A stretch of 64,000 nt of DNA from a virus. The first letter of the stretch is position 1; each line of letters starts with the position of its first letter. This document shows positions 15,372-32,585 of the stretch, piece by piece. The notes under the pieces were generated by a model. That model had not been told where the DNA came from. It did not search any database and saw only the letters and a list, made by a program, of their open reading frames with translations. The stretch spans positions 31,305 through 95,304 of IMG/VR virus record IMGVR_UViG_3300025164_000635. The stretch is one strand, 5' to 3'. Position numbers and translations under genes: made by a program.

Positions 15372-15599
15372 TTACAAGAATCTCTGTCGTTTGTCAATAT
15401 GGCGTCTCGTGACCACGCGCCTGAACCTTCCGCTTGCTCTAACCGACCGCAGACCGCCTCGGCTTCTCGGCTCGACCTGAATCTGAGGATTTGCAGTGTC
15501 TTCGATGAGCTGGGCCTGCCAGCGTATAACAATCTGCAACATTCGGCGTAACATTGACTGAACCTTGTCCAGTGACCAAAGTCCCATACGTTTGATCAT
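15372..15599 (-). CDS. Hypothetical protein
   Basis: 75 aa, ATGA-coupled to terminase stop. Confidence 0.45.
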   Translation of the reverse strand: MIKRMGLWSLDKVQSMLRRMLQIVIRWQAQLIEDTANPQIQVEPRSRGGLRSVRASGRFRRVVTRRHIDKRQRFL

Positions 15600-17455
15600 C
15601 GCCGATCCCTCCGGGTCTGTGTTCGTGCTCCTCGATAGGAGCTTCTCGGCAGCCTCACCATCTCTTCGTCATCACTGGCCGGCATGGGTTTCAGATCTTC
15701 GTTGATCCTGAACTTATCGACCACCCTACTCCAAAGAGTCCCTTCGTACCTGACCGCCAAGCAGTATACAAACAAAGAGGCAATCACGTCATCGGACAAC
15801 TTATCGTGCCCCGGCCCCTTTTCCCGGTAAACGCCGCCTTGATACCAAAGAGCGGTCAGCTTCGGCCAGGCAAAATGACTATCTTGCGCCAAGAGCGTAA
15901 ATAGAGACCGAGCCCAGGCTTTGTTGTTACCGGCAAACGTGACCGGCACAGTCTGATAGCTAGCGAAAACACCACTGTCCTCGAACCCGGTCAGTCCCAG
16001 ATTGGTCGCGTCGTAATAGCCCATGGCTGCGTAATCATCCATGCACTGCTTGAACGCGCTCAGCCACGGATCGTAAGTCCCATCCCCATCCAGCATCCCA
16101 AAATAGACTAACGGGATTGGTTTCACCATGAAGGTCGTCAAATCAAGCGCCAATACGGTCGGCACATTCTGGTCACTCAGCTGGGCCGGATACGACTTTC
16201 CCGGATCGCCCACCACAATGTAGCTATGTCGCGCAATTGGCGGCACTCGATACCGGATGACGCCCATTTCCCCTCGACTCTCAGACGGGATCCGCTCGGC
16301 CAGTAAGTCCTTATCCATCTCTTCATCGTGGCACCGATTGAAAAGCACTTCTGGCAATAGCCGATTCAGGCTCGAGGAGTTCGTATCCCCACCCAACCAA
16401 CGCCTCTGCTCGGCCTCAGATAGCAAGGCCCCATGAAATGCCTTCTGCCGATCGGTGATGTAGACGTTCGCGTCTCGGTGAATCCCCTCCACGTAGCGTG
16501 CCTTCACCAAAGGATCGTTCTTCTCGGCCAGCGTCCTGATGCGTCCTTTGAGCACTTCCAACTCAGGATTCAACATCCCGTCTTCGGGTGGGTTCGTCAG
16601 CATGGTCAGTTTCGACCACATATCCTCACCATTCGCCCGTTGTCCGCGCGAACGGGTCATGAGTGTTCCCAAAGCGGCCACAATACCCATGAGGTACTGC
16701 ACCTCGTCCACATTCAGCCAATCCACATTCTTCCCGGTAATGTTCTGCGCTGTGCCATCTCGCCCAATCGTTTGACACACAAACCGGCTCTCATATTGCG
16801 GCCCAAAGGGACTCCGAATCACCACGGTCGGGTGTGGCTTTGAGACAAACAACTCGCCCCCACGAGTCATCTCTACAAATTTCGTGAAGGGCGTATCGGT
16901 GCACCACTTTGTCAACTCTTCCACCATCAATACGGCCTGATTCTCGGTGGGCGCCACGTTCAGGAACCGGAAGCCCGGATACAACGCACAGCACCCCAGG
17001 CCCGCCACGGCTACCGCACTCGTCTTGCTCGTCCCGGTCCCCGTGATGGCCAGCACGACCGCCACACTCGGATCGATCAACCCATTCTGTATCACCCACG
17101 GCAAAAAGAGATACCCATGCGGATACAAGAAGTCTGGCTCAGCCAGCTCTGTCCAGCGCGTCTCAATACGCATGAGGCCAAACCCCTCGACCTCCAGTTT
17201 CATCTCCTGCTCCGGCCGGCCCGCCTGCACCCACATCTCGTGCAACTGACCGTACTCAAAAAGAGACCGGTAATGGCCAGTCTCACCCCCTTCCGCCCGC
17301 CAGCGAGTCCCCCCGCCTGGCAAGCGCATGTAGTAGTTCGTCAGCACATTCAGGTCACCGTCGCGTGCCTCCTTCAATACCCGCATGTCTGACGGCTCCG
17401 CCAGCGACTCAAATCGCTTCATCCACCTCGATAACGCCCTCTCGTCCGCCCTCAT
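15596..17455 (-). CDS. terL: Terminase large subunit
   Basis: Walker A-like GTGTSKT, APTENQA, Walker B WLNVDEVQ, LTNP, nuclease VGDPG and DDVIASL. Start moved to ATGA overlap at 17455. Confidence 0.85.
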   Translation of the reverse strand: MRADERALSRWMKRFESLAEPSDMRVLKEARDGDLNVLTNYYMRLPGGGTRWRAEGGETGHYRSLFEYGQLHEMWVQAGRPEQEMKLEVEGFGLMRIETRWTELAEPDFLYPHGYLFLPWVIQNGLIDPSVAVVLAITGTGTSKTSAVAVAGLGCCALYPGFRFLNVAPTENQAVLMVEELTKWCTDTPFTKFVEMTRGGELFVSKPHPTVVIRSPFGPQYESRFVCQTIGRDGTAQNITGKNVDWLNVDEVQYLMGIVAALGTLMTRSRGQRANGEDMWSKLTMLTNPPEDGMLNPELEVLKGRIRTLAEKNDPLVKARYVEGIHRDANVYITDRQKAFHGALLSEAEQRRWLGGDTNSSSLNRLLPEVLFNRCHDEEMDKDLLAERIPSESRGEMGVIRYRVPPIARHSYIVVGDPGKSYPAQLSDQNVPTVLALDLTTFMVKPIPLVYFGMLDGDGTYDPWLSAFKQCMDDYAAMGYYDATNLGLTGFEDSGVFASYQTVPVTFAGNNKAWARSLFTLLAQDSHFAWPKLTALWYQGGVYREKGPGHDKLSDDVIASLFVYCLAVRYEGTLWSRVVDKFRINEDLKPMPASDDEEMVRLPRSSYRGARTQTRRDRR

Positions 17456-17640
17456 CCATCCCCCTTCCCTACAGGTGGAGTCTTGCCCCACCATTCCGTG
17501 CGTCTGGAGACCGCCTCATCAAAGGCGTCCAGACAGCTAATTAGAAACTGCGCCAGGATGAAGTCCGGCGTGTCCGACCGATTCTCCATGCTGTTCTCGT
17601 TCAGCAACACCGTCAGCTTGTCCCGAAATCCGTCACTCAT
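17452..17640 (-). CDS. Conserved small phage protein (N..S.EN.SDTPDFILA..L..CL)
   Basis: 62 aa, GAGGT RBS. Confidence 0.6.
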   Translation of the reverse strand: MSDGFRDKLTVLLNENSMENRSDTPDFILAQFLISCLDAFDEAVSRRTEWWGKTPPVGKGDG

Positions 17641-17906
17641 ACCTCGAGAGCCTCCGTTATACTCTCAACCTGCCTTACCAACTCCTCCAGGCGCGTGACC
17701 CGTTCCTGAAACTGGTTTGCCAACGCCACATACACCCCATTCGACTGCTCCCTGAGCGTCGGCGCCTCCATCATCGGCCGCATGACGCCCGACAGCCGCC
17801 CCTCCAGTCTCCCCAGACCCTTCTGGAGTTGCTCCAGGCTCACATCCAGCTTAACCAGTACCTCCTGCATGTGTGTCTGTTTAGCCATCTGGTCATGCTG
17901 CTGCAT
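17637..17906 (-). CDS. Small coiled-coil protein
   Basis: 89 aa, AGGAGG RBS. Confidence 0.55.
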   Translation of the reverse strand: MQQHDQMAKQTHMQEVLVKLDVSLEQLQKGLGRLEGRLSGVMRPMMEAPTLREQSNGVYVALANQFQERVTRLEELVRQVESITEALEV

Positions 17907-18162
17907 CTTGCCCCTCCTTGAGATATTCTCGACTTGCCTGAATGTACGCAGGCGGCTGTGTCCAGCCCGACAACAGTGCTAACCACACCCGCCCAAATAC
18001 TAGAGCCGATAGCCTTTCTCGCAAACTCAGCCGCCAGCAGGATACGCACTGCTCCCCATCTGACCATACTGCCAGCGGCACCACTCCCCCTACCCTCTCC
18101 GAGTAACTGTGACTGCTTGGAAACAAGACCTTGTTCGCTAACCCAAAAGCCACTGGCCTCAT
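17893..18162 (-). CDS. Conserved hypothetical phage protein (DGEQCVSCW...RERL...GRVWL...TQPP)
   Basis: Start reassigned to ATG 18162 (ATGA overlap). Confidence 0.6.
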   Translation of the reverse strand: MRPVAFGLANKVLFPSSHSYSERVGGVVPLAVWSDGEQCVSCWRLSLRERLSALVFGRVWLALLSGWTQPPAYIQASREYLKEGQDAAA

Positions 18163-18338
18163 CCCCCACCCCACCCCACCTGCTCCATCAGGGCTACCAA
18201 CGCTTCCGTCACCCGTATCCACTCGTCCCACTGCGCCACCAGACGCCTTGGCGCGTTCGCTCTCATCATCGACGCCCTCTCTATCAGCGCCCTCAACTCC
18301 CCCACCCCCAACGGCCTCAAACTCTCTTCGGTCACCAT
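18159..18338 (-). CDS. Hypothetical protein (59 aa), first gene of the left arm
   Basis: MVTEESLRPLGVGELRALIERA...; GAGGAGGTG RBS; not in ORF track. Confidence 0.5.
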   Translation of the reverse strand: MVTEESLRPLGVGELRALIERASMMRANAPRRLVAQWDEWIRVTEALVALMEQVGWGGG

Positions 18339-18507
18339 CCCTCACACCTCCTCTTACAGAGTCCCCCTATTCTACCACTCCCCACCCTTCTCGGCCTCAC
18401 CCACGCATACAACTTGGCCGCCGGAAAAGGGAGAAATATATAAGAACAGATGGCCTTTTAGTGAAGTATAGGGCTTTCTGTCCACATCCAGGAAAGGAGA
18501 AAGTGTC

Positions 18508-18615
18508 ATGTCACAGGTTGGTTCGTTCATTCTGTTGGTCGTGGCCGCCGTGTTCATTCTGGCTGGTGGTGGCGCAGGCGTCATCATCGGGCAACTGTTC
18601 ACGATGGGCTTCTAA
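18508..18615 (+). CDS. Small membrane peptide (35 aa)
   Basis: AAAGGAG RBS; MSQVGSFILLVVAAVFILAGGGAGVIIGQLFTMGF. Confidence 0.6.
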   Translation: MSQVGSFILLVVAAVFILAGGGAGVIIGQLFTMGF

Positions 18616-18715
18616 CTGAATAGCAGAGGCAGAGGGGCAACCGAAAGGTTGTGTCCCTCGCCCTCTGGGATTCAGCCGAAAGGCTATACCAAGAATCCTG
18701 GAAAGGAGAACAGCC

Positions 18716-18961
18716 ATGTTGCAGATCAACCATGTCGAGATCAGGACAATCGAGGCCGCGAAACTGATGGACTTCGTGGGCAAGGCGCAACCGTCTGCTT
18801 GGGGTATCGGTCGGTATGCCCTGCAGGCAGGGCAGCCCACCATCCAGGTTGAGCAGCGGGTGTGCCATGCCGCCGCTCTTGAACTGCGCCAGTTGGCCGC
18901 AGAGAAGGACATCGCCAACCCGGCGCTGTTCGCTATTGCGGCCTATCTCGGCAATCTGTAA
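18716..18961 (+). CDS. Hypothetical early protein
   Basis: AAAGGAGAACAGCC-ATG leader, identical to that of the RNAP gene. Confidence 0.65.
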   Translation: MLQINHVEIRTIEAAKLMDFVGKAQPSAWGIGRYALQAGQPTIQVEQRVCHAAALELRQLAAEKDIANPALFAIAAYLGNL

Positions 18962-18974
18962 AACAACTGAATAT

Positions 18975-19036
18975 CGCAGAGAGGGGCTAGGCCATAGGCT
19001 TAGCTCTAATGCGGCATACCGGTCTCAAGCCCGGTA
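18975..19036 (+). ncRNA. Twister ribozyme, circularly permuted (P1 closed by a loop)
   Basis: CGCA-GAGAG-[GGGCTAGGCC ata GGCTTAGCTC]-TAA-TGCG-GC-ATA-CCG-GTCTCAAGCC-CGG. P1, P2, P4, T1 (CTC/GAG) and T2 (GC/GC) are all satisfied; predicted cut U19007^A19008. Confidence 0.85.
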
Positions 19037-19065
19037 AACCCATGTCGCATAAAGGAGAAAGAGTC

Positions 19066-19257
19066 ATGCGTACAGTTATCCAGGACCGGGTAGCTTCAGA
19101 AGCTACTCGGAGAGCATACGAACGTATGATGGAGAGCAACCCAAGACCCAGCTACCAGCCTCAGTCTGAGGCCGAAGCCTGGAGACAGGCGTGGATCTCA
19201 GGCAAGGTCAGCCTAGGGGATGTCCCGGCTCGCTATCGCTCCCTCGTTGCTCGCTAA
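19066..19257 (+). CDS. Hypothetical early protein
   Basis: AAAGGAG RBS, start 19066. Confidence 0.6.
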   Translation: MRTVIQDRVASEATRRAYERMMESNPRPSYQPQSEAEAWRQAWISGKVSLGDVPARYRSLVAR

Positions 19258-19263
19258 CAATCG

Positions 19264-19365
19264 AATATCTGCCTTCTTCCAGGAAGGCAGAGCAGGCTCA
19301 TTCTCTCGGAGGAGGATGGGCCTGCTCTGCTTTCTGGGACTAGAGCCCAGAGCAGAGAAAAGGAG
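19264..19365 (+). ncRNA. Repeated structured leader element, copy A
   Basis: Three hairpins ending in TCTGGG-ACTAGAG-CCCAGA, then GCAGAGAAAAGGAG. Confidence 0.7.
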
Positions 19366-19372
19366 AATCACC

Positions 19373-19567
19373 ATGACGTACCCGAAAGGCTACACCAACG
19401 ACTACGCTACCATCTGGGAGCAACGCATGAGCAAGGCCATCGGCCTGCACCTACACTGGCTGACTGAGGCATGCTACCAGGCCGCTCTTTACAGCGACCG
19501 CCTCACCATCCAGGCTCAGGTCAAGCTGGGCAAGCTCTACATGGCTGCCAGCAAGGGCGGCAAGTAG
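19373..19567 (+). CDS. Hypothetical early protein
   Basis: AAGGAG RBS, start 19373. Confidence 0.6.
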   Translation: MTYPKGYTNDYATIWEQRMSKAIGLHLHWLTEACYQAALYSDRLTIQAQVKLGKLYMAASKGGK

Positions 19568-19572
19568 TCGTC

Positions 19573-19672
19573 AATCTACTTCTGTCTTCCCCTCCGGGAA
19601 GGCAGAGGCTTGGGTATCACGGTATCCAAGCCTCTGCCTTTCGGGACTAGAGCCCGAAGCAGAGAAAAGGAG
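19573..19672 (+). ncRNA. Repeated structured leader element, copy B
   Basis: Same three-hairpin layout; TTCGGG-ACTAGAG-CCCGAA (stem sequence differs but pairing kept). Confidence 0.7.
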
Positions 19673-19678
19673 AAACCC

Positions 19679-19948
19679 ATGTCTCACAAGATCATCTTCG
19701 TGCTGGTGCTGGTCGGGCTGATGCTGGCCTTCACGGCCTGTGATGCCTCGAAAGAGGCAGGCTGGACGACCTCCTGTATCCGGGAGTACAAGGCCGCCAA
19801 CGATGGGGCTGATCCGGATGCGGACACACTCAAGGCGTGCGTTGAGGCCAAGAGAGATGCTGCTGAGTCTCTCAACAAGACACTCAATCAGGGCAAGCAG
19901 CAGGCCGAAGCCCTGGTTGCTACACCCGTCCCTGACCCCAATAAGTAG
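19679..19948 (+). CDS. Small lipoprotein
   Basis: MSHKIIFVLVLVGLMLAFTA-C lipobox. Confidence 0.65.
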   Translation: MSHKIIFVLVLVGLMLAFTACDASKEAGWTTSCIREYKAANDGADPDADTLKACVEAKRDAAESLNKTLNQGKQQAEALVATPVPDPNK

Positions 19949-19965
19949 CAAGCTATAGACAACCA

Positions 19966-20072
19966 AATATCGCTTCACCCCTGCTCCCTCATGGGAGCAG
20001 ACCAGAGCCACTCTCCTGCGAGGGCGGCTCTGGTCTGCTTCTGGGACTAGAGCCCAGGCAAACAGAAAGGAG
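19966..20072 (+). ncRNA. Repeated structured leader element, copy C
   Basis: Same layout; CTGGG-ACTAGAG-CCCAG, then AAAGGAG. Confidence 0.7.
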
Positions 20073-20080
20073 TAGTAGCC

Positions 20081-20575
20081 ATGTTACACAATCCGTTGTT
20101 CTGGTTCTGTGTTGCAGCTCTGCTTGTTGCTATCCATGAGCTGATCGTCCGCAATCGCAACCCCTTCTACGAGCTGGACTTGCGGGAGTATTACGAGCCG
20201 AGCTCCCAGGAAGGGGATGAGTGCCCCATCTGCGGTGTCATGGGCGGGCACGATGCCGAGATATGCACGGGTGATGAGTATGCCGGCGTGTGCCGTGAGG
20301 ACTTCTATGTCCAATTCGGCAACACCCCAGAAGTTCGGGAGCTGTATCACATCTGGGTCTCTGAGGCTAATGTGGAGTTCCGCTGGATGGTCATGGATAT
20401 GTGCGGCATGTACGGTGCCTCCGAGACCTTGGGCCGCCTCCGGGAAGCCATCAACGAGGAGCGGCCTCTCGACTTGCCATCCAGCAAAGAGATGCACCGC
20501 CGCATCCTCCGGGCTTGCCCCGATCCCGACCTCGCCCGCGGTATGGGTGAGGAGACCCTCTACAGAGTGCGATAG
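20081..20575 (+). CDS. Membrane-anchored protein with CPIC...H...C zinc motif
   Basis: N-terminal TM segment; CPICGVMGGHDAEIC. Confidence 0.6.
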   Translation: MLHNPLFWFCVAALLVAIHELIVRNRNPFYELDLREYYEPSSQEGDECPICGVMGGHDAEICTGDEYAGVCREDFYVQFGNTPEVRELYHIWVSEANVEFRWMVMDMCGMYGASETLGRLREAINEERPLDLPSSKEMHRRILRACPDPDLARGMGEETLYRVR

Positions 20576-20583
20576 GAGGAACA

Positions 20584-21003
20584 GTGGATAAGTATGTACG
20601 GGTCCGTCTGACGAGCGCTAGCCTCTTGGCGCAGTCAGATCCCTTCCCAGTGTTGTTGTGGTACGACGCCAGGAAGCGGGCCGTCCACCTGAAGGTCATC
20701 TCCAGCGCGGGTGGGCGGTATGACGTGCACCTTCGGTTCCAGGTGCACGAGGGCAAGGCTTACCTCATGGATCGGATGTGCTTCTGTGAGGACTTCGAGT
20801 CCTCGATGAAGCACTTCGACATGCTCCAGGAGCTCGGGATGCCGGTTGAGGGGAGTGCCTTGCCTCTCTATCGGGGCCTGCCCATCTGCAAGCACATCCT
20901 GCTCGGCGGTCTGAAGGTGATCGCCGAGAACTGGGTGGCCCTCTTCCTGGATGGGCAGCCGCAGGCTAAAGCCTTCCAGGAAGATGAAGTCCTGCCGTTC
21001 TAG
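20584..21003 (+). CDS. SWIM-type zinc finger protein
   Basis: CFCEDF...ICKHIL (CxC...CxH); GGAGG RBS. Confidence 0.65.
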   Translation: MDKYVRVRLTSASLLAQSDPFPVLLWYDARKRAVHLKVISSAGGRYDVHLRFQVHEGKAYLMDRMCFCEDFESSMKHFDMLQELGMPVEGSALPLYRGLPICKHILLGGLKVIAENWVALFLDGQPQAKAFQEDEVLPF

Positions 21004-21172
21004 CACGAGCAAAACAACACACGTGCCTCTTGTGCACTCCAATGACGCCACTGGTGTCTGGACATGCAAGAGAGGCATGTGCCATATCATGCCGAAAGGC
21101 AGCGCTTGGCCGCGTTACAGCCGATTGAACGACCTGATAGGCAGGAATCAACCTACATAAAGGAGAACAGCC

Positions 21173-23575
21173 ATGTCGTTCACGTCATTTCGCTCTACCC
21201 GTAAGGTGGTTGTGGTGGACCGCTTCGGGCGACCCACCGGAGAGGAAAGGATTCTCTCTAACAGCCCGATCGACGCCCTGTTCCCTGACGAGAAGATCGT
21301 CATGGTGAACTGGAAGTACGAGGGCGCGAAGGCGCCCACCGCTGAAGAGTTGCGCCGGCCGATCCGCCACGGCGGCAACGAGTACCGTGGTGACTGGGCC
21401 TGGGGCAGCAGCGTCAAGCGCGGATACACTGTGGGCCTGACCCGTGACCTGCTGGTGGACACGGGATTGCTGAACTGCTGTGAGGACGCCCACCGATTCG
21501 GTCGGGCGTTCCTTGCCAACGGCCTGTATGGGGCCGGGAAGGGTGAGCTGCACATCAAGTTCGTGCCCGAAGGGACTCAGACCCTGGCCGGCCCGGTGGC
21601 GGACGGCTTCGGGTATGTGAGACGCTCGGTGGCCGAGAAGATGAATGCCGGACACGACAAGATCAAGTTCGGCACCGCGCGCGACTCGTCGCACTGGTGG
21701 CAGCGCATTCCCTGGACATCCGAGATCCAGGAAGAGCTGGAGCCGCTTCTGCGTGACAACCTGGTGGAGGCTGGTGACCCCGGGTTGTGGATGTTGAGGC
21801 AGTTAGGCGACCGCGATCAGGGTCGCCGCCACCTGGTCGAAGCCGAGCCGTTGATGGCTGAGCACCCGTATGTGGCGAACATGCTCATGAGGGTGTCCTC
21901 AGACATCCTGGCCCGGGCGGCCACGACGGTCCCCCTGAATCACGCGGTGAAGGTTACTGTGCCCGCGAACGTCCCCAACATCGCTGTGGACGGGAAAACA
22001 CTGAGCACGCGCTACCCGATCGATGCCAAGAACTCCATCCGGGCGAACAACAACACGCTCAACACCGTGGAAGCCGAGATGGAGCGGATTGCCGAGATGG
22101 AGCGGATTGCCCAGATGGAGGTCATTCAGTATGGCATGACCTCCATGGGTGACCATCCCTTCTCGGCTAAAGGCTGCGCCGGGATCGTTGACGATGATCT
22201 CCTCGATGCCGACTTCGTGTTGTGCACGAAGGACATCAAGATGGGTGACAAGAAGTTGGTGGACATCAAGGCGGAGATCGTGGTCTCGGTGACCCAGTGG
22301 TTTGCCCAGGGCGAGGCGGTCGGTGTGAATACGAAGTTCTGGGCCGACCAGGGCGGTGATTGCGACGGCGATCTGGCGTTGATCGCCGATTGCAGTGAGT
22401 TGCCCCGCCTGTGGGAGGCGGTTAGCGGGTTTGGGCTCCAGCCCACGCCCAAGCTCATCAAGACTCACACGAAGCTGGAGGACGAGGACATCCGGGGTGA
22501 GTTGGCTGAGAAATCCATGCTGAATGTGGTCGGCATGGCAGTCAACCTCATGGCTGCGACGTTTGTCACGGCCAACCGGGAAGAGATGGCCCACCGCCTG
22601 GGCTATGCGAGTGAGGCTGCCCTGGATAACGCCCTGAATTACTGGGTGAAAGCAGGCACGGATCTCTTCAAGGTGTCTGTCGACACCAAGCAGCTCATGC
22701 AAGATCTCTCTCGGTTCCAGAGCAAGCTGGTCAATGTGCTCGGTACGCTGCCGCCGTGGGTGAGCTGGCCCAACGACTGGGCCTTCACGCACGGCGTCCC
22801 GTCCTTCTGGAACGAGGACGAGATGGGTCACCTGAAGAGCGACGATCCTGTTCGGAAGAATGCCGTTCCTACCAATTCCTGGTACGACGGGACCATCGTC
22901 CAGATCATGAGGCTGACCCTGCTCGCCCTCAGCGCGATGCTGAGCCATACCCTGGCTGTGCGGCCGCTGCATGACTTCCAGAGATGGGCCCTGGTTGTGC
23001 CGGACAGTGTTCTGGGGCCCGCGATCGGTCTCCAGAAGATGTTCGTAGCCGAGTCCCAGCGCGTCAACTGGGAGTGGCCCCAGGATGTCGTCCGCTTCAG
23101 CCAGTGGTGGGCCGAGAAGGTCGCCACCTGGAAGAACGAGATGGGCCTGGATGACACCCTAGCCTGCGCTGCTATCTGGCGCGCGGCCCATGACATGCGG
23201 AGCAAATACGCCGGGGCGTCGTCTGTGTTCATGGCCTTCCCGGAAGAAGTACTGGATATTCTCCGGGATAAGCCCGGCCTCTCCAAGTTGGTGTCTGGTG
23301 TCATCCTCGGCCTGCCCGAAGTGACCGAGGAGACGGTCATCCAGGGCACCGTTCGGGAGTTCAAACGCAAGGACTCACAGTCCGGCCGGACCGTCATCCG
23401 CAAGTGCTTGGTGGACGGTAACTCGGGCCTACCCCATATGCCCGACATCAACTACCCGGGCGCGATTGCCGTCTTTGCTTCGGATCACCCGTCGCCCGAG
23501 AATGGGCTGAAGGTGACCGTCAAGGTCACCCGGCGCACCAAGAAGTCCTGGTTCGCTGATTGCATCTGCCAGTAG
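21173..23575 (+). CDS. Single-subunit double-psi-beta-barrel RNA polymerase (YonO / RdRP-like)
   Basis: 800 aa; ADGFGYV (aa 144), RYP (280), SAKG (333), catalytic GGDCDGD (396-400). Confidence 0.75.
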   Translation: MSFTSFRSTRKVVVVDRFGRPTGEERILSNSPIDALFPDEKIVMVNWKYEGAKAPTAEELRRPIRHGGNEYRGDWAWGSSVKRGYTVGLTRDLLVDTGLLNCCEDAHRFGRAFLANGLYGAGKGELHIKFVPEGTQTLAGPVADGFGYVRRSVAEKMNAGHDKIKFGTARDSSHWWQRIPWTSEIQEELEPLLRDNLVEAGDPGLWMLRQLGDRDQGRRHLVEAEPLMAEHPYVANMLMRVSSDILARAATTVPLNHAVKVTVPANVPNIAVDGKTLSTRYPIDAKNSIRANNNTLNTVEAEMERIAEMERIAQMEVIQYGMTSMGDHPFSAKGCAGIVDDDLLDADFVLCTKDIKMGDKKLVDIKAEIVVSVTQWFAQGEAVGVNTKFWADQGGDCDGDLALIADCSELPRLWEAVSGFGLQPTPKLIKTHTKLEDEDIRGELAEKSMLNVVGMAVNLMAATFVTANREEMAHRLGYASEAALDNALNYWVKAGTDLFKVSVDTKQLMQDLSRFQSKLVNVLGTLPPWVSWPNDWAFTHGVPSFWNEDEMGHLKSDDPVRKNAVPTNSWYDGTIVQIMRLTLLALSAMLSHTLAVRPLHDFQRWALVVPDSVLGPAIGLQKMFVAESQRVNWEWPQDVVRFSQWWAEKVATWKNEMGLDDTLACAAIWRAAHDMRSKYAGASSVFMAFPEEVLDILRDKPGLSKLVSGVILGLPEVTEETVIQGTVREFKRKDSQSGRTVIRKCLVDGNSGLPHMPDINYPGAIAVFASDHPSPENGLKVTVKVTRRTKKSWFADCICQ

Positions 23576-23578
23576 CAT

Positions 23579-23790
23579 AGGTTCCGAGGCCGATCTTCGG
23601 ATCGGCTCTCGGCTTCTGGGTAGGTGAAAGCCCATCCAGAAGCCGGGAAGGAACTTACCTTCTCTAGCGTGGAGTCTCACCACACTCTCCCTCCCACGGG
23701 GCACGGCAGCCTACTTCCGGGCTACCGCCGTCTTCCCCCTGGGGCTAACGCCGCACTAAAGCTCCGAGAGGAAGCAAACTCCTATAGGAA
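23579..23790 (+). ncRNA. Structured intergenic RNA candidate
   Basis: TAGGTTCC/GGAACTTA closes a UUCG hairpin and a long GAAA-capped hairpin; further nested stems follow. Confidence 0.45.
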
Positions 23791-23802
23791 AGGTGGTGTA
23801 GC

Positions 23803-24126
23803 ATGTCCAAGTTCCTGAACCGTGACGTTGACCTGAAGGCGAAGGTCGCTGGCAAGCCCGGTACCGGTACGCCCGGCCCGCGGCAGCCCGTAGCCACGAC
23901 CGACATCAACGTGACGCAGCTCGAGGCGTTCGCGGCCAAGCTGGAAGCGACGTACCCCAAGCTGGAGCCCAACGACCGCGCCATCGCCAACAGCATGAAC
24001 CCGGCGACGGGCAAGGCCAATATCCTCCTGGCCGGCATCAGTCGCGCCCGGGGTGACAAGGCCAGCGTGACCGTGTACAGCACCGGCCGCGTTGTCTGGG
24101 CGGGCGTCCCCGCGTTCACTCTGTAG
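23803..24126 (+). CDS. Hypothetical protein
   Basis: 107 aa, strong codon bias, GAAAGGTGG RBS. Confidence 0.65.
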   Translation: MSKFLNRDVDLKAKVAGKPGTGTPGPRQPVATTDINVTQLEAFAAKLEATYPKLEPNDRAIANSMNPATGKANILLAGISRARGDKASVTVYSTGRVVWAGVPAFTL

Positions 24127-24191
24127 CCCACAGTGGAGGGGTCCGACATAGGGCCCCTCCCCCCCCACCCTTTCCTGGAAGGAATCGAACC

Positions 24192-24302
24192 ATGAAACTC
24201 AGCCTGTCCGAACTCATCCTACTGGCCGCTGGGTTGCTTGCAACGGCTACATCTGGCTATCACTCCAGCCCTGGGTCACTGGTGATAGCCATCATCCCCT
24301 AA
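24192..24302 (+). CDS. Small hydrophobic peptide (36 aa)
   Basis: GAAGGA RBS; MKLSLSELILLAAGLLATA... Confidence 0.4.
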   Translation: MKLSLSELILLAAGLLATATSGYHSSPGSLVIAIIP

Positions 24303-24314
24303 CAACATGGCTAT

Positions 24315-24353
24315 GGAGCCGGTGCCCGCGGCGGGTGCCGGCTCCCCTCTTTT
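24315..24353 (+). terminator. Rho-independent terminator
   Basis: GGAGCCGGTGCCCG-cgg-CGGGTGCCGGCTCC followed by CTCTTTT. Confidence 0.55.
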
Positions 24354-24354
24354 G

Positions 24355-25345
24355 AACAGGTGCCCTGAGAGCAGCCCCAGATGACGGGCGGGGTATTAAA
24401 GCAGGCCAAAACCCTCACCCCGATGACCGTTCCAAATATCATCCCAGGCTGCTCTTAGGGAATCTGTCCTTAAAAAGGCAACAGGCTCTCGCATGAGGGT
24501 CACCCAGGGGCACACCAGGGGCCCTGAAGGGGTGCAATCCCTGTGGCCCGTTGGAACTTCCGGGAAGTACACGGTGGTAGAACGGGCGTTCTATTGAGGC
24601 GGGACTGAGTAGGCGTCGGCAGATTATGAGGGGAGTCACCCTGGAGCGGGCTCTCACGAGTCGTGACGTGAGTGGTGCCGTGCGGACTGAACGTGAGGTG
24701 GCCCGTGCGGACTGCCCTCATAGTCTGCCGAGGCGGACACAGTTCTGCCACGGTGGGGTGGAAGGCCCTGCGGGGCGTGCATGCGCTTGAATCATGCAGC
24801 CGGCAAGTAATGGCTAGAGTAGCCTCTGGTCCCGTGATCACTATGCGGGGAAAGGCAGGCTTGAGCAGGGAATGCGTGCACGCGCCCTGTCAAGGGAGTT
24901 CTGCCGGGCGTGTCTCTAACCCTGGGCACGCAGCACAATCCTAAGCCGGACTTTGAGGGCCGTGATGGATGGTGGGGGAGAGGCCGGGAAGAGTCTATGA
25001 CCGCCGGTGTTTCGGCACCAGGGCGACGGGCTCTTCCTGGCTGGCTCCCATGACCTGTTTCTCTCATGTGTCCGATGGCCGAGAAGGGCTTCAAGGCAGG
25101 CAGTGGAGGCGTGTGGACGATAATTCCTACGCTGGAAACTGCCGTCACAGTTAGGTTCGTGTGACTACGTGGCCGGCTGTGGCCGAGTGGACTGGTCATC
25201 CACTCGTAATGTGCGGGTTCGACTCCCGCCAGCACGCTTTCATGAGCAGTATAGACGCTTTTTGGTTTGAGGCTATCGGGCATTCATACTGGCCTCAAAC
25301 CCAAACGGGCGATCTATCCTATTGTTTCGGCAATGGGATAGTGAG
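24355..25345 (+). ncRNA. Large ornate non-coding RNA, GOLLD-like candidate
   Basis: ~1 kb with no credible ORF, many long G-U-containing nested stems and two T-loop-like hairpins. GGCAGTGGA...ATAAT...AAACTGCC block resembles the GOLLD 3' domain as I recall it. Confidence 0.6.
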
Positions 25346-25379
25346 ATAAGGAACACATTGCCTGGAAGGGAGGCAACCG

Positions 25380-25592
25380 ATGAAGAGACGTGTCGTCATC
25401 AGAGGGCAGCCTATGAAGTACATCGTGAAGTACATCAAAGACCCAGTAAGGGACAGGCGAGGGGAGCCGCCCTACCGAGCCCTCATTGACGGGGAAGAAT
25501 GTGGCGAGTGGAAGCGAACCGCCATACAAGCGAGCACTGAACACGATCGGATTGTGGCCGAGAAGGCTGCAACCAAGATAAAGGAGGCATGA
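25380..25592 (+). CDS. Hypothetical protein
   Basis: GGAGG RBS, coupled operon. Confidence 0.55.
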   Translation: MKRRVVIRGQPMKYIVKYIKDPVRDRRGEPPYRALIDGEECGEWKRTAIQASTEHDRIVAEKAATKIKEA

Positions 25593-25834
25593 TGTACACC
25601 ACAACGACATTTCCACCCATCTTTCAGCACGGCCCAGTGTCCTCGACCATGCAGTTGCACGTGCCTACCAGCGGCTATGGCCGGAGTGTCGCCATCGTCC
25701 GAACACTGCACAACGGATCGGTCACCCACGAGTATCTGCCGGAATTCCTGGCCGAGCTGGTCGTCGCCATGATCCCGTTCGACGAGCCACTGGTCGCGTC
25801 GGTGAGGATCGCCTACTCGGAGATGGGACAATGA
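25589..25834 (+). CDS. Hypothetical protein
   Basis: AAGGAGG RBS, ATGA overlap. Confidence 0.55.
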   Translation: MMYTTTTFPPIFQHGPVSSTMQLHVPTSGYGRSVAIVRTLHNGSVTHEYLPEFLAELVVAMIPFDEPLVASVRIAYSEMGQ

Positions 25835-26061
25835 TCATCCTCAACGTCCTGTACCCCTATGCCGATCCGACAACCGAAGTGCTGCACGTGAACGCGGCCA
25901 CCCTAGAGAATGCCGAGACATACGCCATCCGCCGACTTGTGGAGGAAGCGGTCAATACTCTGAACGCCTCGGCCGGCTCCAAAAGCATGAGCCGTACCTA
26001 CCACGGGCACGAGCTTTGGTGGTGGAAGAATCTGGCGACCAAGCTGGAGATCCCGCGATGA
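25831..26061 (+). CDS. Hypothetical protein
   Basis: ATGA overlap. Confidence 0.55.
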   Translation: MIILNVLYPYADPTTEVLHVNAATLENAETYAIRRLVEEAVNTLNASAGSKSMSRTYHGHELWWWKNLATKLEIPR

Positions 26062-26267
26062 CCGTCAGCGAAGCCTACGAGCAAACCAATGCCTTTGGTC
26101 GGCCCAGATACGCTATGTTCCTGAGAGATGGAGCCGGCCATCTGCATCAGATTCATCGCATCAATAGGCTCGATGACAACTACCTCCTTGATACTGAGCA
26201 CGGCTCTTTCCCCAGATTGGGGATGGAACAGTGCATCACAGCAGAGCAGAGTGAACATTACCGCTGA
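26058..26267 (+). CDS. Hypothetical protein
   Basis: ATGA overlap, start 26058. Confidence 0.5.
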   Translation: MTVSEAYEQTNAFGRPRYAMFLRDGAGHLHQIHRINRLDDNYLLDTEHGSFPRLGMEQCITAEQSEHYR

Positions 26268-26273
26268 ATGGCC

Positions 26274-26382
26274 GGGAAGATGACCTTCCCTGGGGGTGAG
26301 CGGATTGGACTCCCTAAGCCATTGAAGGTTGGCTGCGGCCAGCCGGACGAGGGTTCGACTCCCAAGCGGTAACTCCCCACCA
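26274..26382 (+). ncRNA. Degenerate tRNA-like element
   Basis: GGGTTCGACTCCC T-arm, long variable-arm hairpin GGTTGGC-tgcg-GCCAGCC and 3' CCCCACCA; cloverleaf imperfect. Confidence 0.4.
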
Positions 26383-26479
26383 AGCGGACGTCCCGTGGCG
26401 GTGTACGGCCCATGACGTGGCCGTGAAGACCGGACAATCGGGACGTTCGCTTTGTGGGCATTTTCTTCCGAGGTGAAAC

Positions 26480-26791
26480 GTGGAAGTCTCTACCTATAAC
26501 GGTACCATTCGGATCCAATTCAGTGAGGGCAGCAAACGACACCAATGTATCCTCACCATCATGCTTGAGGACGGGAAACCCATTGTCACCAGTGGCCGAG
26601 GAGTGTGGCCGGGAAAGGAACGCCTGGCGGCCATTGATAACAGTGAATTGCAGGACTTCCTGGACAAGCTACAGGCCAGCACCGAGAAGACACTCAAGAT
26701 GGCCGACCTGCGCCAGATACTGGCCAAAAGCGAACCGTTCTTCCAGGTCCAGGAGTCCAGGTCGTCCGCGAACCGTGCCAATCGCTTCTAG
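26480..26791 (+). CDS. Hypothetical protein
   Basis: GAGGTG RBS, GTG start. Confidence 0.55.
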   Translation: MEVSTYNGTIRIQFSEGSKRHQCILTIMLEDGKPIVTSGRGVWPGKERLAAIDNSELQDFLDKLQASTEKTLKMADLRQILAKSEPFFQVQESRSSANRANRF

Positions 26792-26836
26792 GCGGAAGGG
26801 GCTGCGGCCCTGAAAGCAGTAGGTTACCCGAACCTG

Positions 26837-26875
26837 CGTCTTCTAAACGTTTCGCCGCGAAACGTTTAGAAGACG
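26837..26875. repeat. 39-bp palindrome containing parS-like copy 2 (26848-26864)
   Basis: CGTCTTCTAAACGTTTCGC-C-GCGAAACGTTTAGAAGACG, perfect 19-bp arms. Confidence 0.85.
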
Positions 26876-26987
26876 AAACGAGTGAAGTAGGGAAGCTGAA
26901 CCTGTAAAGAGCCCTGAGTGGCTGCCGCCGATGAAGGAAGGGGGATGGAGAAATCCATTCCCCTTTGCCTTTTGTATGAGGTGAGAC

Positions 26988-27077
26988 ATGAAATTGGACA
27001 TTCCCGAGAAGATCGCCATCTGGGGTTTTGTGCTATCCATGGCAGCCCTGATCGTGCGTATCGTCACCAGTTTGTGA
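26988..27077 (+). CDS. Small membrane peptide (29 aa)
   Basis: GAGGTGA RBS; MKLDIPEKIAIWGFVLSMAALIVRIVTSL. Confidence 0.5.
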   Translation: MKLDIPEKIAIWGFVLSMAALIVRIVTSL

Positions 27078-27123
27078 AACCCCGATGCCAGCGGACAATC
27101 TGGCAGAGACGAAAGGAGACAGA

Positions 27124-27915
27124 GTGAACATCGGAATCTGGGCACAGCCGGCATTCTTCCCGGCCACGCCCCCCGCTCCCCGTGACTTTGAGGCAGTCAC
27201 GGAAACGGGTGAAGAGGTCGAGCCTCAGCGTGAGAATCGCTACCGTTTCCATAATGGGAGCGTAGGCGATTGGATTGAGATCGAGAACGTAAGTGAATCC
27301 AGTGAGTACAACGACGAGCTATTCGACCGCCTGGAGGCACTGCGCCAGGCCGATCGCAATGCTTGGAGTGCTACCCTGGACGAACTGGACAGCGACACCT
27401 ACCGGCAGTACATGATCGACCGTACTTCCCGGTGGCACATGGAGAAGGCCCGGCCCGCTCTGAAATGTGAACGGGAAGGGCTGGAAGCCGCGGTCAAGGC
27501 CATGCGTGACTGCACCCGGGCGGAAGCCTATGACCGGAAAGGGCAGTCGATGAAGTTGGCTCAGTCCATCCGGGAGCGGGCCACTCAGGCCAAGTCACTC
27601 GATGACCTGTGCAAGCTGGCCGATGAGGCCGACGCCTTTGACAATCGGACGCAGCAACTCGTCAGTGTGAAGGCGCTGTTGCCGAAGTACATCCCGGATA
27701 CCATCTGGAACTACATCGAAGGCGCCATTGAGAGGGCGCACGAACGCATCAAGGCTGAGAAGAATCGCCACATTCGCTCCTGCCCACCCGAAGTGGATGC
27801 CTGGATCAGGGCGAACGGCTCCAAGGTCGTTGAGTACAGAGGCGTCCAGCGACCCATGAGGATCCTACCACGCCACGTTCAGGTGAATGTGGCGACCCAG
27901 GAGATAAGACGATGA
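27124..27915 (+). CDS. Hypothetical protein
   Basis: AAAGGAG RBS before GTG 27124; helical. Confidence 0.65.
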   Translation: MNIGIWAQPAFFPATPPAPRDFEAVTETGEEVEPQRENRYRFHNGSVGDWIEIENVSESSEYNDELFDRLEALRQADRNAWSATLDELDSDTYRQYMIDRTSRWHMEKARPALKCEREGLEAAVKAMRDCTRAEAYDRKGQSMKLAQSIRERATQAKSLDDLCKLADEADAFDNRTQQLVSVKALLPKYIPDTIWNYIEGAIERAHERIKAEKNRHIRSCPPEVDAWIRANGSKVVEYRGVQRPMRILPRHVQVNVATQEIRR

Positions 27916-28115
27916 AGCAAACTCGTATCAAAATCAATGCCCGGCCCAATGTGCCGGCAGTCCTCATCGTAGGCACCAGCGACGAGATGGTCATGAACTT
28001 GATGCTGAATGGCTACCTCGGTATGTTCCCCCTGATAGGGGATGAGAGAGTGACCTTCCAGGTCTCCGAGGAAGAGACGGTATACTCACCCCTCGCCATG
28101 CTGACCATTCTGTAA
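27912..28115 (+). CDS. Hypothetical protein
   Basis: ATGA overlap, AGGAG RBS. Confidence 0.55.
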   Translation: MKQTRIKINARPNVPAVLIVGTSDEMVMNLMLNGYLGMFPLIGDERVTFQVSEEETVYSPLAMLTIL

Positions 28116-28303
28116 CGGGCGCCACGCCGGTCGGGGTTGCAGCCCCGATCAGTACCGGTTAATCCGTCCAGAACCCTCCAAAGAAGCCTTTTACCTGTGT
28201 CGTGTGTCACGCCAGGCATTTCAGCTTCCCGGACACCCTCTGAGACGGTGTAAAAACCGGTTGATCGTACCCGACGAGAATCCCGGCCGGCGTATTTTCC
28301 CCC

Positions 28304-28335
28304 TTGACAAACTCTTGATTGGGTGTATAATCAAG
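28304..28335 (+). promoter_or_regulatory. Sigma70-type promoter with overlapping inverted-repeat operator
   Basis: TTGACA-16-TATAAT; CTTGATT-N8-AATCAAG spans the -10. Confidence 0.75.
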
Positions 28336-28505
28336 TCCAAGAATGGGGAAGGGGAGAAGCAAGCCGACTGGGGATACCTTCGTATTGACTCCCCTACCCT
28401 CTTCCTGGCTGAGGATTGAATGTGCGAGTGTTCTCTCATCCTTCTTACCCACGTGTGGACATTGCGCTCCGTTTCGATTCTCCCCTGTCCGAGAAGGAAT
28501 AGGTC

Positions 28506-28832
28506 ATGAATTGCGTCATCAACTTCTCACATCCGCTGACCGAATATCAGTACAAGGATCTCTCAGAGCAGCTTGGCCACTTCACCGAAGTATATAAGCC
28601 TGTCCAGTTCGATATGGTCACGGGCAACCTGCGCCGAGAAGTGGAGACCCTGCTGAATGACACCGTGCAAGACATCTCGGAGATTGTCGCCATTATCCCG
28701 CCAAAGTTGAGCGTGGCGGCCTATTGGATGGCGCTCGAGATGGAAGCGCTGGGATGGCACAATGTACCAGCCGTCTACTTTATTCATGACTCCAGCGTCC
28801 CCCCTCAGTTTGTCGTGGGCGGTGTAGAGTGA
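28506..28832 (+). CDS. csx15: Csx15-like protein (CRISPR type III associated family), phage-encoded
   Basis: INFSHPLT..Q...L......PVQFD...V..L....I.PP.L..A...A.......P.......S.PPQF.V matches the Csx15 signature as recalled. Confidence 0.7.
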   Translation: MNCVINFSHPLTEYQYKDLSEQLGHFTEVYKPVQFDMVTGNLRREVETLLNDTVQDISEIVAIIPPKLSVAAYWMALEMEALGWHNVPAVYFIHDSSVPPQFVVGGVE

Positions 28833-28993
28833 TCTGGCTATTCTTCGCACTCATCATGTTTCTGGTCATCGACTACCATCGCTTGCGAAGGGCCTGGAAG
28901 GGACCCGGGCCTTTCGATGGACAAGGCTATCCCAGCTCAACGCTGCGGCTTCTGATCGTAGCAACGGTAGTCGCCATACTCCTGCTGAGGTGA
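28829..28993 (+). CDS. Small two-TM protein (54 aa)
   Basis: GTGA overlap; MIWLFFALIMFLVIDY...LLIVATVVAILLLR. Confidence 0.5.
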   Translation: MIWLFFALIMFLVIDYHRLRRAWKGPGPFDGQGYPSSTLRLLIVATVVAILLLR

Positions 28994-28997
28994 AATC

Positions 28998-29255
28998 ATG
29001 AAAGTCTATCGACAAACATTCCAAGTCACCGGGTTAGGCTCCTTCCCACTCGACATGCTCCGATATGATGAGTGCTATCCGCGCACAGAGCGAGATACAG
29101 CTCTGATCGATCAGTCTTTCCAGGAAGCCAACGTGCAATACATTGGCCTTGAGCGCATCCTCACCGATGAGGCGAAAGACCCCACATTCGATCGCTGGAA
29201 GTCATTCCTGTGGGCAGTTGTGAAGAATAGCATCGTGACAGAGCAAATCAAATGA
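28998..29255 (+). CDS. Conserved hypothetical protein (F.V.G.G.FP.DMLRYD.C.P...PT..RW.SF.W)
   Basis: GAGGTG RBS; recognisable small phage protein motif. Confidence 0.65.
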   Translation: MKVYRQTFQVTGLGSFPLDMLRYDECYPRTERDTALIDQSFQEANVQYIGLERILTDEAKDPTFDRWKSFLWAVVKNSIVTEQIK

Positions 29256-29488
29256 GCTCCGATCTCAGACCCGAGAAGGTCATATTGCAATTTGTCCAGG
29301 AAGCCGAAGAGCAGGGCCGGACACTGGCCGAGATTGCCAAGCACACCGGTCTCTTCCAGGCGCAGGCCGCTGTCATGCTCCAGACCTGGGAGAACGAGGG
29401 CTACCTTGTCCGGCACATTAACACCTATGGGGCACCGGGAAAGGAAAGGACGGTCGCGCGCTGGTACGCGACCCCCAAGAAGGACTGA
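29252..29488 (+). CDS. Winged-helix DNA-binding protein
   Basis: TLAEIAKHTGL...L..WE.EGYLVR. Confidence 0.6.
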   Translation: MSSDLRPEKVILQFVQEAEEQGRTLAEIAKHTGLFQAQAAVMLQTWENEGYLVRHINTYGAPGKERTVARWYATPKKD

Positions 29489-29520
29489 AGAACCCACAGT
29501 GCAAAGGAGACCACACCACC

Positions 29521-29847
29521 ATGGATCCCTCTTCAACAACCATCTTTCTATCCATCATGACCCTCATCACGCTCATGCTGGGCGGCCTGATCGCCGTAGA
29601 CTATTACGATCGGTCCATCGCCCGATCGCGTGACTACGAGGTGAGGAAGCTCATCGTCGCTCCAGACGAAGTGGAGTTCACTGTTTACTTCCAGCGCCGG
29701 GCAGGATTTCGGTGTATCTCTCACACCGAAACCCTACGCGGGAAGAGGGAACTCCTCTTCGAGACGGGCAATATCCCAGAATGGGCCTTTGCTCGGGTGT
29801 CCACCATGCAGAGATACACGACACGACCCAGGAGTGCCCATGCCTGA
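29521..29847 (+). CDS. Membrane-anchored hypothetical protein
   Basis: N-terminal TM, AAAGGAG RBS. Confidence 0.55.
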   Translation: MDPSSTTIFLSIMTLITLMLGGLIAVDYYDRSIARSRDYEVRKLIVAPDEVEFTVYFQRRAGFRCISHTETLRGKRELLFETGNIPEWAFARVSTMQRYTTRPRSAHA

Positions 29848-30559
29848 TGAAGGACAATTGTCCTTCGTAGTTCAAGATGGAACCCACACTGAAAAACCTA
29901 AAAGAGTAATCCGAGAAGTCATTGCCCGAGAGAACGTGACCTGGCGAGCCGATAACATAGGCGTGAAGTCGTTATCAACCCTGGAGCTCTTGTCCCTCGT
30001 CACGGGCGACGCCGAAGCTGCTGCAAACCTACTGGCCAGCAATGACATTGCCGACATGATGAAGATGAGTTGCGCCGAGATGACCAAGACCAAGGGAATC
30101 GGGAGGAAGCGTTCCTACCAGATATTGGCCGCTCTGGAACTGGGACGACGTTCCCTCACCACAGCGCCTATTGAGAGGACACAGATCCGCGCACCCGCCG
30201 ATGCCGGCGACATCTTCATGGCCGACATGCAGAATCTGACCCAGGAAGAACTGCGTGTGATGGTGTTGGACACACGCAATCGAATCCTGGCAGTACCCAC
30301 CATCTACAAGGGATCTCTGAACACAACCTGGATTCGCACAGCCGAAGTATTCAAGCCGTGCATCTCCAGAGACGGGGCCGCCATCATTGTCGCGCACAAT
30401 CATCCAAGCGGTGATCCATCTCCTTCCTCAGAGGACATCAGCCTCACGAAGGAGATCATCAACGCCGGGAAGTTGCTGGACATCGAGGTACTCGATCATC
30501 TCATCATCGGCCATCAGCGTTTCATCTCACTCAGGGAACGCGGCCTGGCCTTTGAATAA
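29840..30559 (+). CDS. radC: RadC-family JAB/MPN domain protein
   Basis: LS..ELL, KGIG...A.LELGRR, QEE.....LD..N, AHNHPSGDPSPSSED, LDHLIIG. Confidence 0.9.
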   Translation: MPDEGQLSFVVQDGTHTEKPKRVIREVIARENVTWRADNIGVKSLSTLELLSLVTGDAEAAANLLASNDIADMMKMSCAEMTKTKGIGRKRSYQILAALELGRRSLTTAPIERTQIRAPADAGDIFMADMQNLTQEELRVMVLDTRNRILAVPTIYKGSLNTTWIRTAEVFKPCISRDGAAIIVAHNHPSGDPSPSSEDISLTKEIINAGKLLDIEVLDHLIIGHQRFISLRERGLAFE

Positions 30560-30573
30560 AGGAGAACATAGCG

Positions 30574-32498: not shown

Positions 32499-32546
32499 AG
32501 AGAAGCGTTTCCAGTGGGTCTCCCGCTGGCACTTCTCGCCCAAGAA

Positions 32547-32565
32547 GTGACGCTAGGTGACACAC
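32547..32565 (+). repeat. 19-bp direct repeat, copy 1
   Basis: GTGACGCTAGGTGACACAC, identical at 39565-39583. Confidence 0.8.
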
Positions 32566-32585
32566 CTTTCGGATAGGATGAAGAC

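Follow-up and report, generated by a model that had tools for sequence, protein, structure and literature searches.

Three early spacers of an uncultured phage share an invariant 13-base hairpin box that may be a promoter for a two-barrel RNA polymerase

The IMG/VR virus record IMGVR_UViG_3300025164_000635 is complete at 95,304 bp, and the window analyzed here is a 64,000-nucleotide (nt) part of it, positions 31,305 to 95,304; coordinates are those of the window unless stated otherwise. A terminase gene (15596-17494, phrog_2) lies inside a leftward structural module, and from ~18500 a row of small genes runs rightward, its last member being an 800-amino-acid (aa) gene at 21173-23575. The spacers of this early row are all structured (folding of five spacers), and three of them carry the repeated element that is the subject of this report. 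The order within each element is an AT box directly after the stop codon, hairpin 1, hairpin 2, the 13-base box GGGACTAGAGCCC, AAGGAG and the ATG of the next gene, which confirms on sequence the common layout described by a first-pass annotation of the same letters. The element regions fold well beyond shuffled sequences (z -4.5 to -4.9). Their parts are as follows.

19258-19372, 19568-19678 and 19949-20080: the three element-bearing spacers (cassettes 1, 2 and 3)
19263-19269, + strand: AT box GAATATC, right behind the stop codon; recurs at 18969 in the preceding spacer, which holds a twister ribozyme, and as AAATATC at 19965
19269-19290, + strand: hairpin 1 of cassette 1, CTGCCTTC/GAAGGCAG, with the genome-wide word TTCCAGGAA at its apex and a 3' arm overlapping hairpin 2
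19278-19339, + strand: hairpin 2 of cassette 1, 28 bp with 5 G-U pairs, then UUUCU
19336-19348, + strand: box copy 1; full hairpin 3 with its outer stem at 19325-19357
19360-19375, + strand: AAGGAG and the ATG (19373) of a 64-aa gene
19586-19601, + strand: hairpin 1 of cassette 2, CTTCCC/GGGAAG
19593-19646, + strand: hairpin 2 of cassette 2, 24 bp with 3 G-U pairs
19643-19655, + strand: box copy 2; full hairpin 3 at 19632-19664
19667-19672, + strand: AAGGAG, with its ATG at 19679
19981-20000, + strand: hairpin 1 of cassette 3, CTGCTCCC/GGGAGCAG
19992-20043, + strand: hairpin 2 of cassette 3, 22 bp with 3 G-U pairs
20043-20055, + strand: box copy 3; full hairpin 3 at ~20033-20066, with a weaker outer stem
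20067-20072, + strand: AAGGAG, with its ATG at 20081

The 13-mer GGGACTAGAGCCC is exact in all three copies (+ strand; 19336, 19643 and 20043), as first annotated, and no further copy with up to 1 mismatch exists in the entire 95,304-bp record. Each box stands 11 nt ahead of AAGGAG and 24-25 nt ahead of an ATG, and these ATGs open frames of 64, 89 and 164 aa. Hairpin 3 is built on the 13-mer: its core is GGG/CCC around the loop ACTAGAG, extended by 2-3 more pairs that change on both sides between copies and by an outer stem of 6-7 bp. The first reading had also proposed that stem pairing is kept across copies, and this holds for the stem adjoining the 13-mer, where CTGGG/CCCAG in one form stands against TTCGGG/CCCGAA in another. 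The two pairs beside GGG/CCC are of CG, UA, GC and UG types, giving the conserved core and paired variable flanks of N4-type promoters. Their covariation score is 0.34 vs 0.14 in shuffles, a value reached by 0 of 500 shuffles. Covariation is real, strong in hairpin 2 and modest in the 13-mer hairpin. Unlike hairpin 2, hairpin 3 folds equally well on either DNA strand; as DNA, copies 1 and 2 reach z -3.5 to -4.5 on both strands, and the folds are weak for copy 3 and for the outside copies L001, L003 and L004 described below. A literature search with the 13-mer returned nothing relevant. By our own reading, a likeness of the box to sigma-54 or T7-type promoters was rejected on spacing and sequence alone, and mimicry of an anticodon arm, T-loop, k-turn, boxB or preQ1 element by the loop was considered and dropped as a poor fit.

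Hairpin 2 behaves differently. Its energies in cassettes 1, 2 and 3 are -49, -43 and -42 kcal/mol on the + strand and -36, -33 and -38 kcal/mol on the - strand, an advantage of 4-14 kcal/mol for the + strand, which alone has the G-U pairs. The copies are the three longest hairpins in the genome, and their sequences are unrelated. The G-U pairs, the strand asymmetry, the top length genome-wide and the unrelated sequences together argue that hairpin 2 was selected as + strand RNA, and it is an RNA feature under either of the two leading explanations weighed below. Each copy offers at least ~20 bp of double-stranded RNA in a spacer, the size expected of an RNase III substrate (predicted cleavage), and that of cassette 1 is a candidate transcript-end or RNase III hairpin. 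In its longest form hairpin 2 pairs with GGGA of the 13-mer, and its 3' arm is also the 5' arm of the outer stem of hairpin 3, so the two folds are mutually exclusive; the overlapping helix arms and exclusive folds suspected at first sight are therefore real.

Two genes of this phage are candidates for the polymerase that would read the boxes.

21173-23575, + strand: 800-aa two-barrel RNA polymerase (RYP...DCDGD), downstream of the three boxes; candidate non-virion polymerase
Genome 23604-33065, of which window 1-1761 is the 5' part, - strand: 3153-aa gene in the tape-measure position, with RRP...DADGD at residues 1122-1175

The 800-aa protein has no sequence match in Pfam, PHROG or PDB and no tblastn match among cultured phage records; G-D-x-D-G-D (GDxDGD) is invariant in its family of 10 members. 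Its AlphaFold2 model is of low confidence (predicted local distance difference test score, pLDDT, 59.8), and the best structural matches of this low-confidence model are two-barrel polymerases only: QDE-1 by Foldseek (E 2e-5) and, by VIA-align, RDR2 (Z 10.3), QDE-1 (Z 8.4), P74 gp62 (Z 6.9) and P23-45 gp96 (Z 4.6). Against gp64 of phage P32 the model gives Z 7.5 over 257 residues at a root-mean-square deviation of 4.9. Fold matches and the RYP...DCDGD motif are together those of a gp64-like polymerase. From its motifs, the 3153-aa protein is a candidate for a virion RNA polymerase joined to the tail tape measure, like gp96 of P23-45. Because the fold model of its residues 800-1500 is unusable (pLDDT 41), this fusion is read from motifs alone; the same region has no Pfam or PDB sequence match. 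RRP...DxDGD served as the filter for such enzymes in Chaban et al. (PMC10770324), and the only homologue of the 3153-aa protein, of 2987 aa and 33% identity (locus L047), keeps it as RRP...DFDGD. In sequence, gp64, gp96 and YonO align with these polymerases at the catalytic motif only, except for YonO and a protein of the outside contig L002. With the two-barrel fold of the 800-aa protein and RRP...DADGD in the 3153-aa protein, the phage looks like Thermus phage P23-45 in kind.

In P23-45, a tape-measure-fused virion polymerase transcribes the pre-early genes, including gp64, and gp64 transcribes the early genes (PMC10770324). The gp64 transcripts start behind GC-rich boxes such as GGGTCTAGAGGC, GAGTCTAGAGGC and GTTTCTAGGGGC, among others (Chaban et al. 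2024, PMC10770324, supplementary figure 4b, data 1). Their motif is [G/T][G/T]TCTAG[A/G]GGC, with the start ~8 nt further on and then a ribosome-binding site (PMC10770324). We located these boxes in the P23-45 genome. At one of them, TSS20, the start comes 8 nt after the box, AGGAGG follows 4 nt later and ATG another 6 nt on; this box has 10 of 13 bases in common with our box, and its spacing to the ribosome-binding site matches. The boxes are alike in the CTAGAG core, the G-rich 5' flank, the C two bases after the core and a distance of ~12-13 nt from box to ribosome-binding site, and both phages encode a gp64-like polymerase plus, in our case, a candidate polymerase in the tape-measure-position protein. 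They differ in that our box is a hairpin (GGG...CCC with pairing flanks) and the P23-45 boxes are not, and in that ours is invariant at three sites ahead of a polymerase gene, whereas those of P23-45 are degenerate and spread over 38 kb. A weight matrix built from 7 P23-45 sites ranks the box 56th of 190,586 positions, at 6.2 bits vs 14-18 for true sites, a likeness that is suggestive, not decisive. Extrapolation from P23-45, where the start lies 13 nt after CTAG, places the transcription starts here as follows.

19356-19357, + strand: predicted start of copy 1
~19663 and ~20063, + strand: predicted starts of copies 2 and 3

The box also occurs in other genomes. A pattern scan of viral contigs gave 4 hits and its reversed-motif control 5, so counts alone prove nothing. 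An unbiased pattern without the ribosome-binding site recovered L001 and L003 only, plus one hit inside a coding sequence on two contigs. L001, L002 and L003 are AT-rich viral contigs, mutually related and syntenic. In each, the identical box stands 12-34 nt behind a strong intrinsic terminator and just ahead of a ribosome-binding site, and small genes follow the box units, which lead on to large genes of polymerase-like proteins. The polymerase-like protein of L002 matches YonO (E 1e-7), and that of L001 has GADYDGD and a weak match to PF05183 (RdRP family). CTAG is ~10-fold depleted in these contigs (4-5 copies per 6-13 kb vs 23-50 expected), yet it is kept in the box. L001 and L003 also agree with the window copies on both sides of the box, with GC(C)TTT ahead of it and AG behind. 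We regard L001-L003 as good evidence despite the control count; L004 may be a chance hit. Outside RNase H and a single-stranded DNA-binding protein (SSB), no protein family common to L001-L003 and the phage was found.

We tentatively read the boxes as promoters, likely of the hairpin type, for a phage two-barrel RNA polymerase, set in terminator-promoter modules with N4-like logic, and we put this a little short of an even chance. Hairpin promoters for a phage RNA polymerase had been one option of the first-pass annotation, and it is the best supported of them, if not yet probable: the gene at 21173 is two-barrel by fold, the box resembles P23-45 promoters, and in related phages it sits behind terminators. 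That hairpin 3 folds as well on one DNA strand as on the other is a further point in favor. A promoter would explain why 13 bases are invariant across phages whose proteins barely align, and it would explain the order of terminator, box and ribosome-binding site, the likeness to P23-45 promoters and the polymerase-gene neighbourhood. With the precedent of N4, it would also explain the hairpin and the number three. The three hairpin promoters of phage N4 combine a GC-rich core that is conserved with flanks that vary freely but stay paired, and from them an injected polymerase transcribes the genes of the next polymerase (PMC4496689). Like the N4 promoters, the boxes are three copies at the early genome end, with a GC-rich core and inverted repeats whose variable bases need only pair; the early genes that they would drive include the next polymerase; and the start, a predicted one in our case, is 11-14 nt downstream of the hairpin centre. 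Unlike in N4, where the enzyme is T7-like, the candidate polymerases here are two-barrel, and the loop has 3 nt there and 7 nt here, with no sequence likeness. N4 needs gyrase-driven extrusion stabilised by SSB; here the hairpin is a predicted one.

We infer the action of the box as a promoter, and with it which polymerase reads it, where transcripts start and what hairpin 2 does. Transcripts of the upstream gene would end, or be cut, at the very long + strand hairpin 2. A polymerase would bind the invariant GGGACTAGAGCCC, with the flanks needed only to pair and the box read in, or helped by, its hairpin form. Transcription would start ~13 nt after CTAG (~19356, 19663 and 20063), giving a short leader with only the ribosome-binding site. 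The three units would lead into the 800-aa polymerase gene, as in N4, with a P23-45-like split of the early genes between two polymerases.

Several observations weigh against these boxes being promoters. The 95-kb genome has just three copies, and none of its other genes is preceded by a degenerate one. With three sites only, the box cannot be the general promoter of the 800-aa enzyme, and a promoter for the virion polymerase or a self-reinforcing promoter would fit better than a general one. A start inside the downstream GCAGAG would leave that segment, whose complement is the 3' arm of hairpin 2, without a role. Compared with P23-45, an A replaces the invariant T before CTAG and a C replaces the invariant G three bases after it. 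The outside hits are no more numerous than those of the reversed motif, and 21 loci with relatives of the 800-aa protein, most of them short, have no box by pattern (at most 2 mismatches) or by covariance model R1. Finally, in L002 the box is present in only 1 of 4 terminator-bounded units, whereas a T-run followed by AACGGC is present in 4 of 4 and could be the real promoter there.

The strongest alternative, which we consider unlikely though well worth weighing, is that the box acts in RNA as a 5' leader hairpin, an operator or a stabiliser after processing at hairpin 2. Longer early transcripts would start at the AT box or at an upstream promoter, and host RNase III would cut hairpin 2. The cut would free the 5' arm of the outer stem, and the full 12-bp hairpin 3 would then form at the new 5' end, beside the ribosome-binding site, where it could shield the mRNA from decay while its loop ACUAGAG binds a phage protein that times translation. 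Such a leader would account for the complementarity of GCAGAG, the exclusion between hairpins 2 and 3 and the parallel to the twister cassette, in which cleavage would give the same end product, a 5'-terminal hairpin enclosing P4 that abuts AAAGGAG. It is also favored by the clear selection of hairpin 2 as + strand RNA, by the covarying flanking pairs and by the competition of the outer stem of hairpin 3 with hairpin 2 in 3 of 3 copies. A length of 22-28 bp, that of hairpin 2, suits RNase III, as the early mRNA sites of phage T7 illustrate. The T7 sites are likewise long double-stranded hairpins in early-gene spacers, each followed by a ribosome-binding site; they differ in having internal loops and ~20 bp, where ours are near-perfect putative sites of 22-28 bp, and in having no invariant box behind them. 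Two outside observations point the same way: some L002 units have long structured leaders behind T-run + AACGGC, and in the candidate-phyla-radiation loci L030 and L031 the same hairpin lies ~25 nt downstream of a TTGACA-17-TATACT promoter and is hence transcribed there. These latter hits are, however, within chance expectation, with the exact box in 1 of 401 genomes of the phylum. A stabiliser requires no invariant 13 nt, and an operator needs a conserved binding partner, when RNase H and SSB are the only families found in common between the phage and L001-L003. In L001 and L003 the hairpin stands 12-16 nt past a strong terminator with no promoter between, and only read-through could transcribe it. 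In L001, L003 and L004, extending the stem gains nothing over shuffled flanks, and the likeness to P23-45 promoters would be a coincidence. An RNA role and a promoter role are not exclusive of each other.

The likeness to P23-45 could also be to its terminators. Seven pre-early transcript ends of that phage carry a 26-nt CTAG hairpin, a GC hairpin holding CTAG (GGGGGCGTCTAGCCCC, then a T-run) between pre-early genes (PMC10770324), and the box might by analogy be a hairpin at which the virion polymerase terminates or pauses in a sequence-specific way. This is improbable: hairpin 3 is followed by no T-run in any copy, the box directly abuts the ribosome-binding site of the next gene, and L001-L003 already have a canonical terminator ahead of it.

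The first-pass annotation had instead given most weight to a new twister-related RNA family, pointing to a true twister one cassette upstream. That ribozyme is there, in the same slot of the preceding cassette.

18962-19065: twister spacer, with a true type-P5 twister
18975-19034, + strand: type-P5 twister ribozyme (RF02684, 50 bits)

We ran cmscan with Rfam over 18300-21300 at E <= 10. In the three elements no twister (clan CL00120), twister-sister, pistol, hatchet, hammerhead or HDV model matched at this threshold, and copies 1-3 drew only spurious miRNA-type hairpin hits. Nor did Rfam, at gathering or E <= 10, yield a family for the elements across the window and six outside loci. Membership in a twister-related family is accordingly unsupported, and descent from twister, or variant self-cleavage, is very improbable. 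The elements do occupy the cassette position of the type-P5 twister (RF02684) and repeat its skeleton of GCAGAG, a helix, a linker that contains GC and a small hairpin whose loop has AGCC, and both kinds of cassette place a 5'-proximal hairpin beside the ribosome-binding site. The proposed parallel to P4 and T2 thus stands as a likeness of layout, but the GC before the stem is missing from L003, L004 and the candidate-phyla-radiation copies. Unlike the type-P5 twister, the elements have no catalytic internal loop, no T1/T2 pseudoknot partners and no covariance-model match. As first noted, the UAA/GAGAG catalytic loop is absent; the would-be P2/P1 is a continuous, perfect helix of 22-28 bp with no internal loop and no UAA, and copies in other phages lack the upstream helix entirely.

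Least credible is the suggestion, also made at first, that the repeats are recombination points for cassette exchange of the attC kind: small unrelated genes are each bounded by an imperfect palindrome of conserved structure and variable sequence, but no GTTRRRY or RYYYAAC core site exists in any of the six spacers, the strand asymmetry from G-U pairs points to RNA, and no shuffled cassettes are evident among the relatives compared.

Returning to the boxes as promoters, a bolder form of that explanation, which we regard as doubtful, makes them a new promoter class, hairpin in form and read by a two-barrel polymerase that is fused to the tape measure and injected. A cellular-type polymerase fold would in that case have arrived at N4-like logic on its own, with the box conserved base for base across GC-rich and AT-rich phages and with a ribozyme or giant hairpins that end or cut the upstream transcripts of the cassettes. 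To our knowledge, promoters of two-barrel phage RNA polymerases are known in very few phages, namely P23-45, AR9 and phiKZ. The promoter of SPbeta YonO was still undefined in a 2017 study (PMC5467207), and our literature search turned up no later definition of YonO promoters. Invariant across distant uncultured phages and sited beside their polymerase genes, the 13-base box offers a concrete template for in vitro work, and makes it testable whether structured promoters are used by the two-barrel fold as they are by the N4 enzyme. The cassette row is also a natural comparison of ways to separate early messages, with one twister, three hairpins of 22-28 bp and one imperfect long hairpin. The last of these lies in the first spacer and may be another processing site.

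18616-18715: first spacer, with a long imperfect hairpin at 18616-18680 (~27 bp), then a small GAAA hairpin

In favor of the boxes as promoters, a strict scan found no sigma-70 consensus promoter in 17400-24400, vs ~2 expected. Weaker, read by eye and absent from the strict scan, TTGGCC-17-TATATA at 18414-18442, in the divergent spacer ahead of the first rightward gene, is a possible host promoter.

Some further observations concern the outside genomes. In L002:9300-11000 (- strand), four small transcription units lie between strong terminators, each of which is then followed by T-run + AACGGC; long structured leaders follow this motif in 3 of the 4 units, and it may serve this group of phages as a second promoter or start motif. 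At L024:82-150, a locus with a relative of the 800-aa family, ACTAGAGCC stands 24 nt ahead of the ribosome-binding site of a 57-aa gene and, from its letters, may be a diverged box copy. Cultured phage records hold no box copy, and no similar box was found in SPbeta yonN-yonK or upstream of yonP/yonO. Two candidate-phyla-radiation genomes (L030:5500-5780 and L031:7060-7330, - strand) have a GC-rich unit of ~230 nt flanked by a clpB-like and a dus gene. The unit has an intrinsic terminator and a promoter close to consensus, starts with the same hairpin, a 12-bp stem around ACUAGAG, and has no conserved reading frame and no Rfam match. A universal RNA module, suggested by this unit, was rejected: it is one orthologous locus, and neither its chance expectation nor the frequency of the exact box in the phylum, given above, speaks for it. 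CTAG is also scarce in the genome of the window (107 vs ~357 expected).

The first annotation had each element start with AAT(AT)C. This is borne out for copies 1 and 3 and for the twister spacer, which have GAATATC or AAATATC directly behind stop codons (18969, 19263 and 19965, + strand); copy 2 has AATCTAC in this position, at 19573. On the opposite strand, an AT box at 17928 lies immediately ahead of the ribosome-binding site of the first leftward gene. The AT box could correspond to the AT-rich promoter that the virion polymerase of P23-45 uses, or it could be a site of the RNase E type. Hairpin 1 contains a word that is abundant throughout the genome: in 95 kb, CCNGGAAG occurs 154 times and its complement CTTCCNGG 132 times, vs ~8 expected, and the palindrome TTCCNGGAA occurs 32 times, vs ~1 expected. 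Copies of CCNGGAAG are dispersed over coding and non-coding DNA (in the window, for example, at 3573, 19277, 20974, 23237, 36200, 44179 and 63127), and in cassettes 1 and 2 hairpin 1 has this word at its apex.

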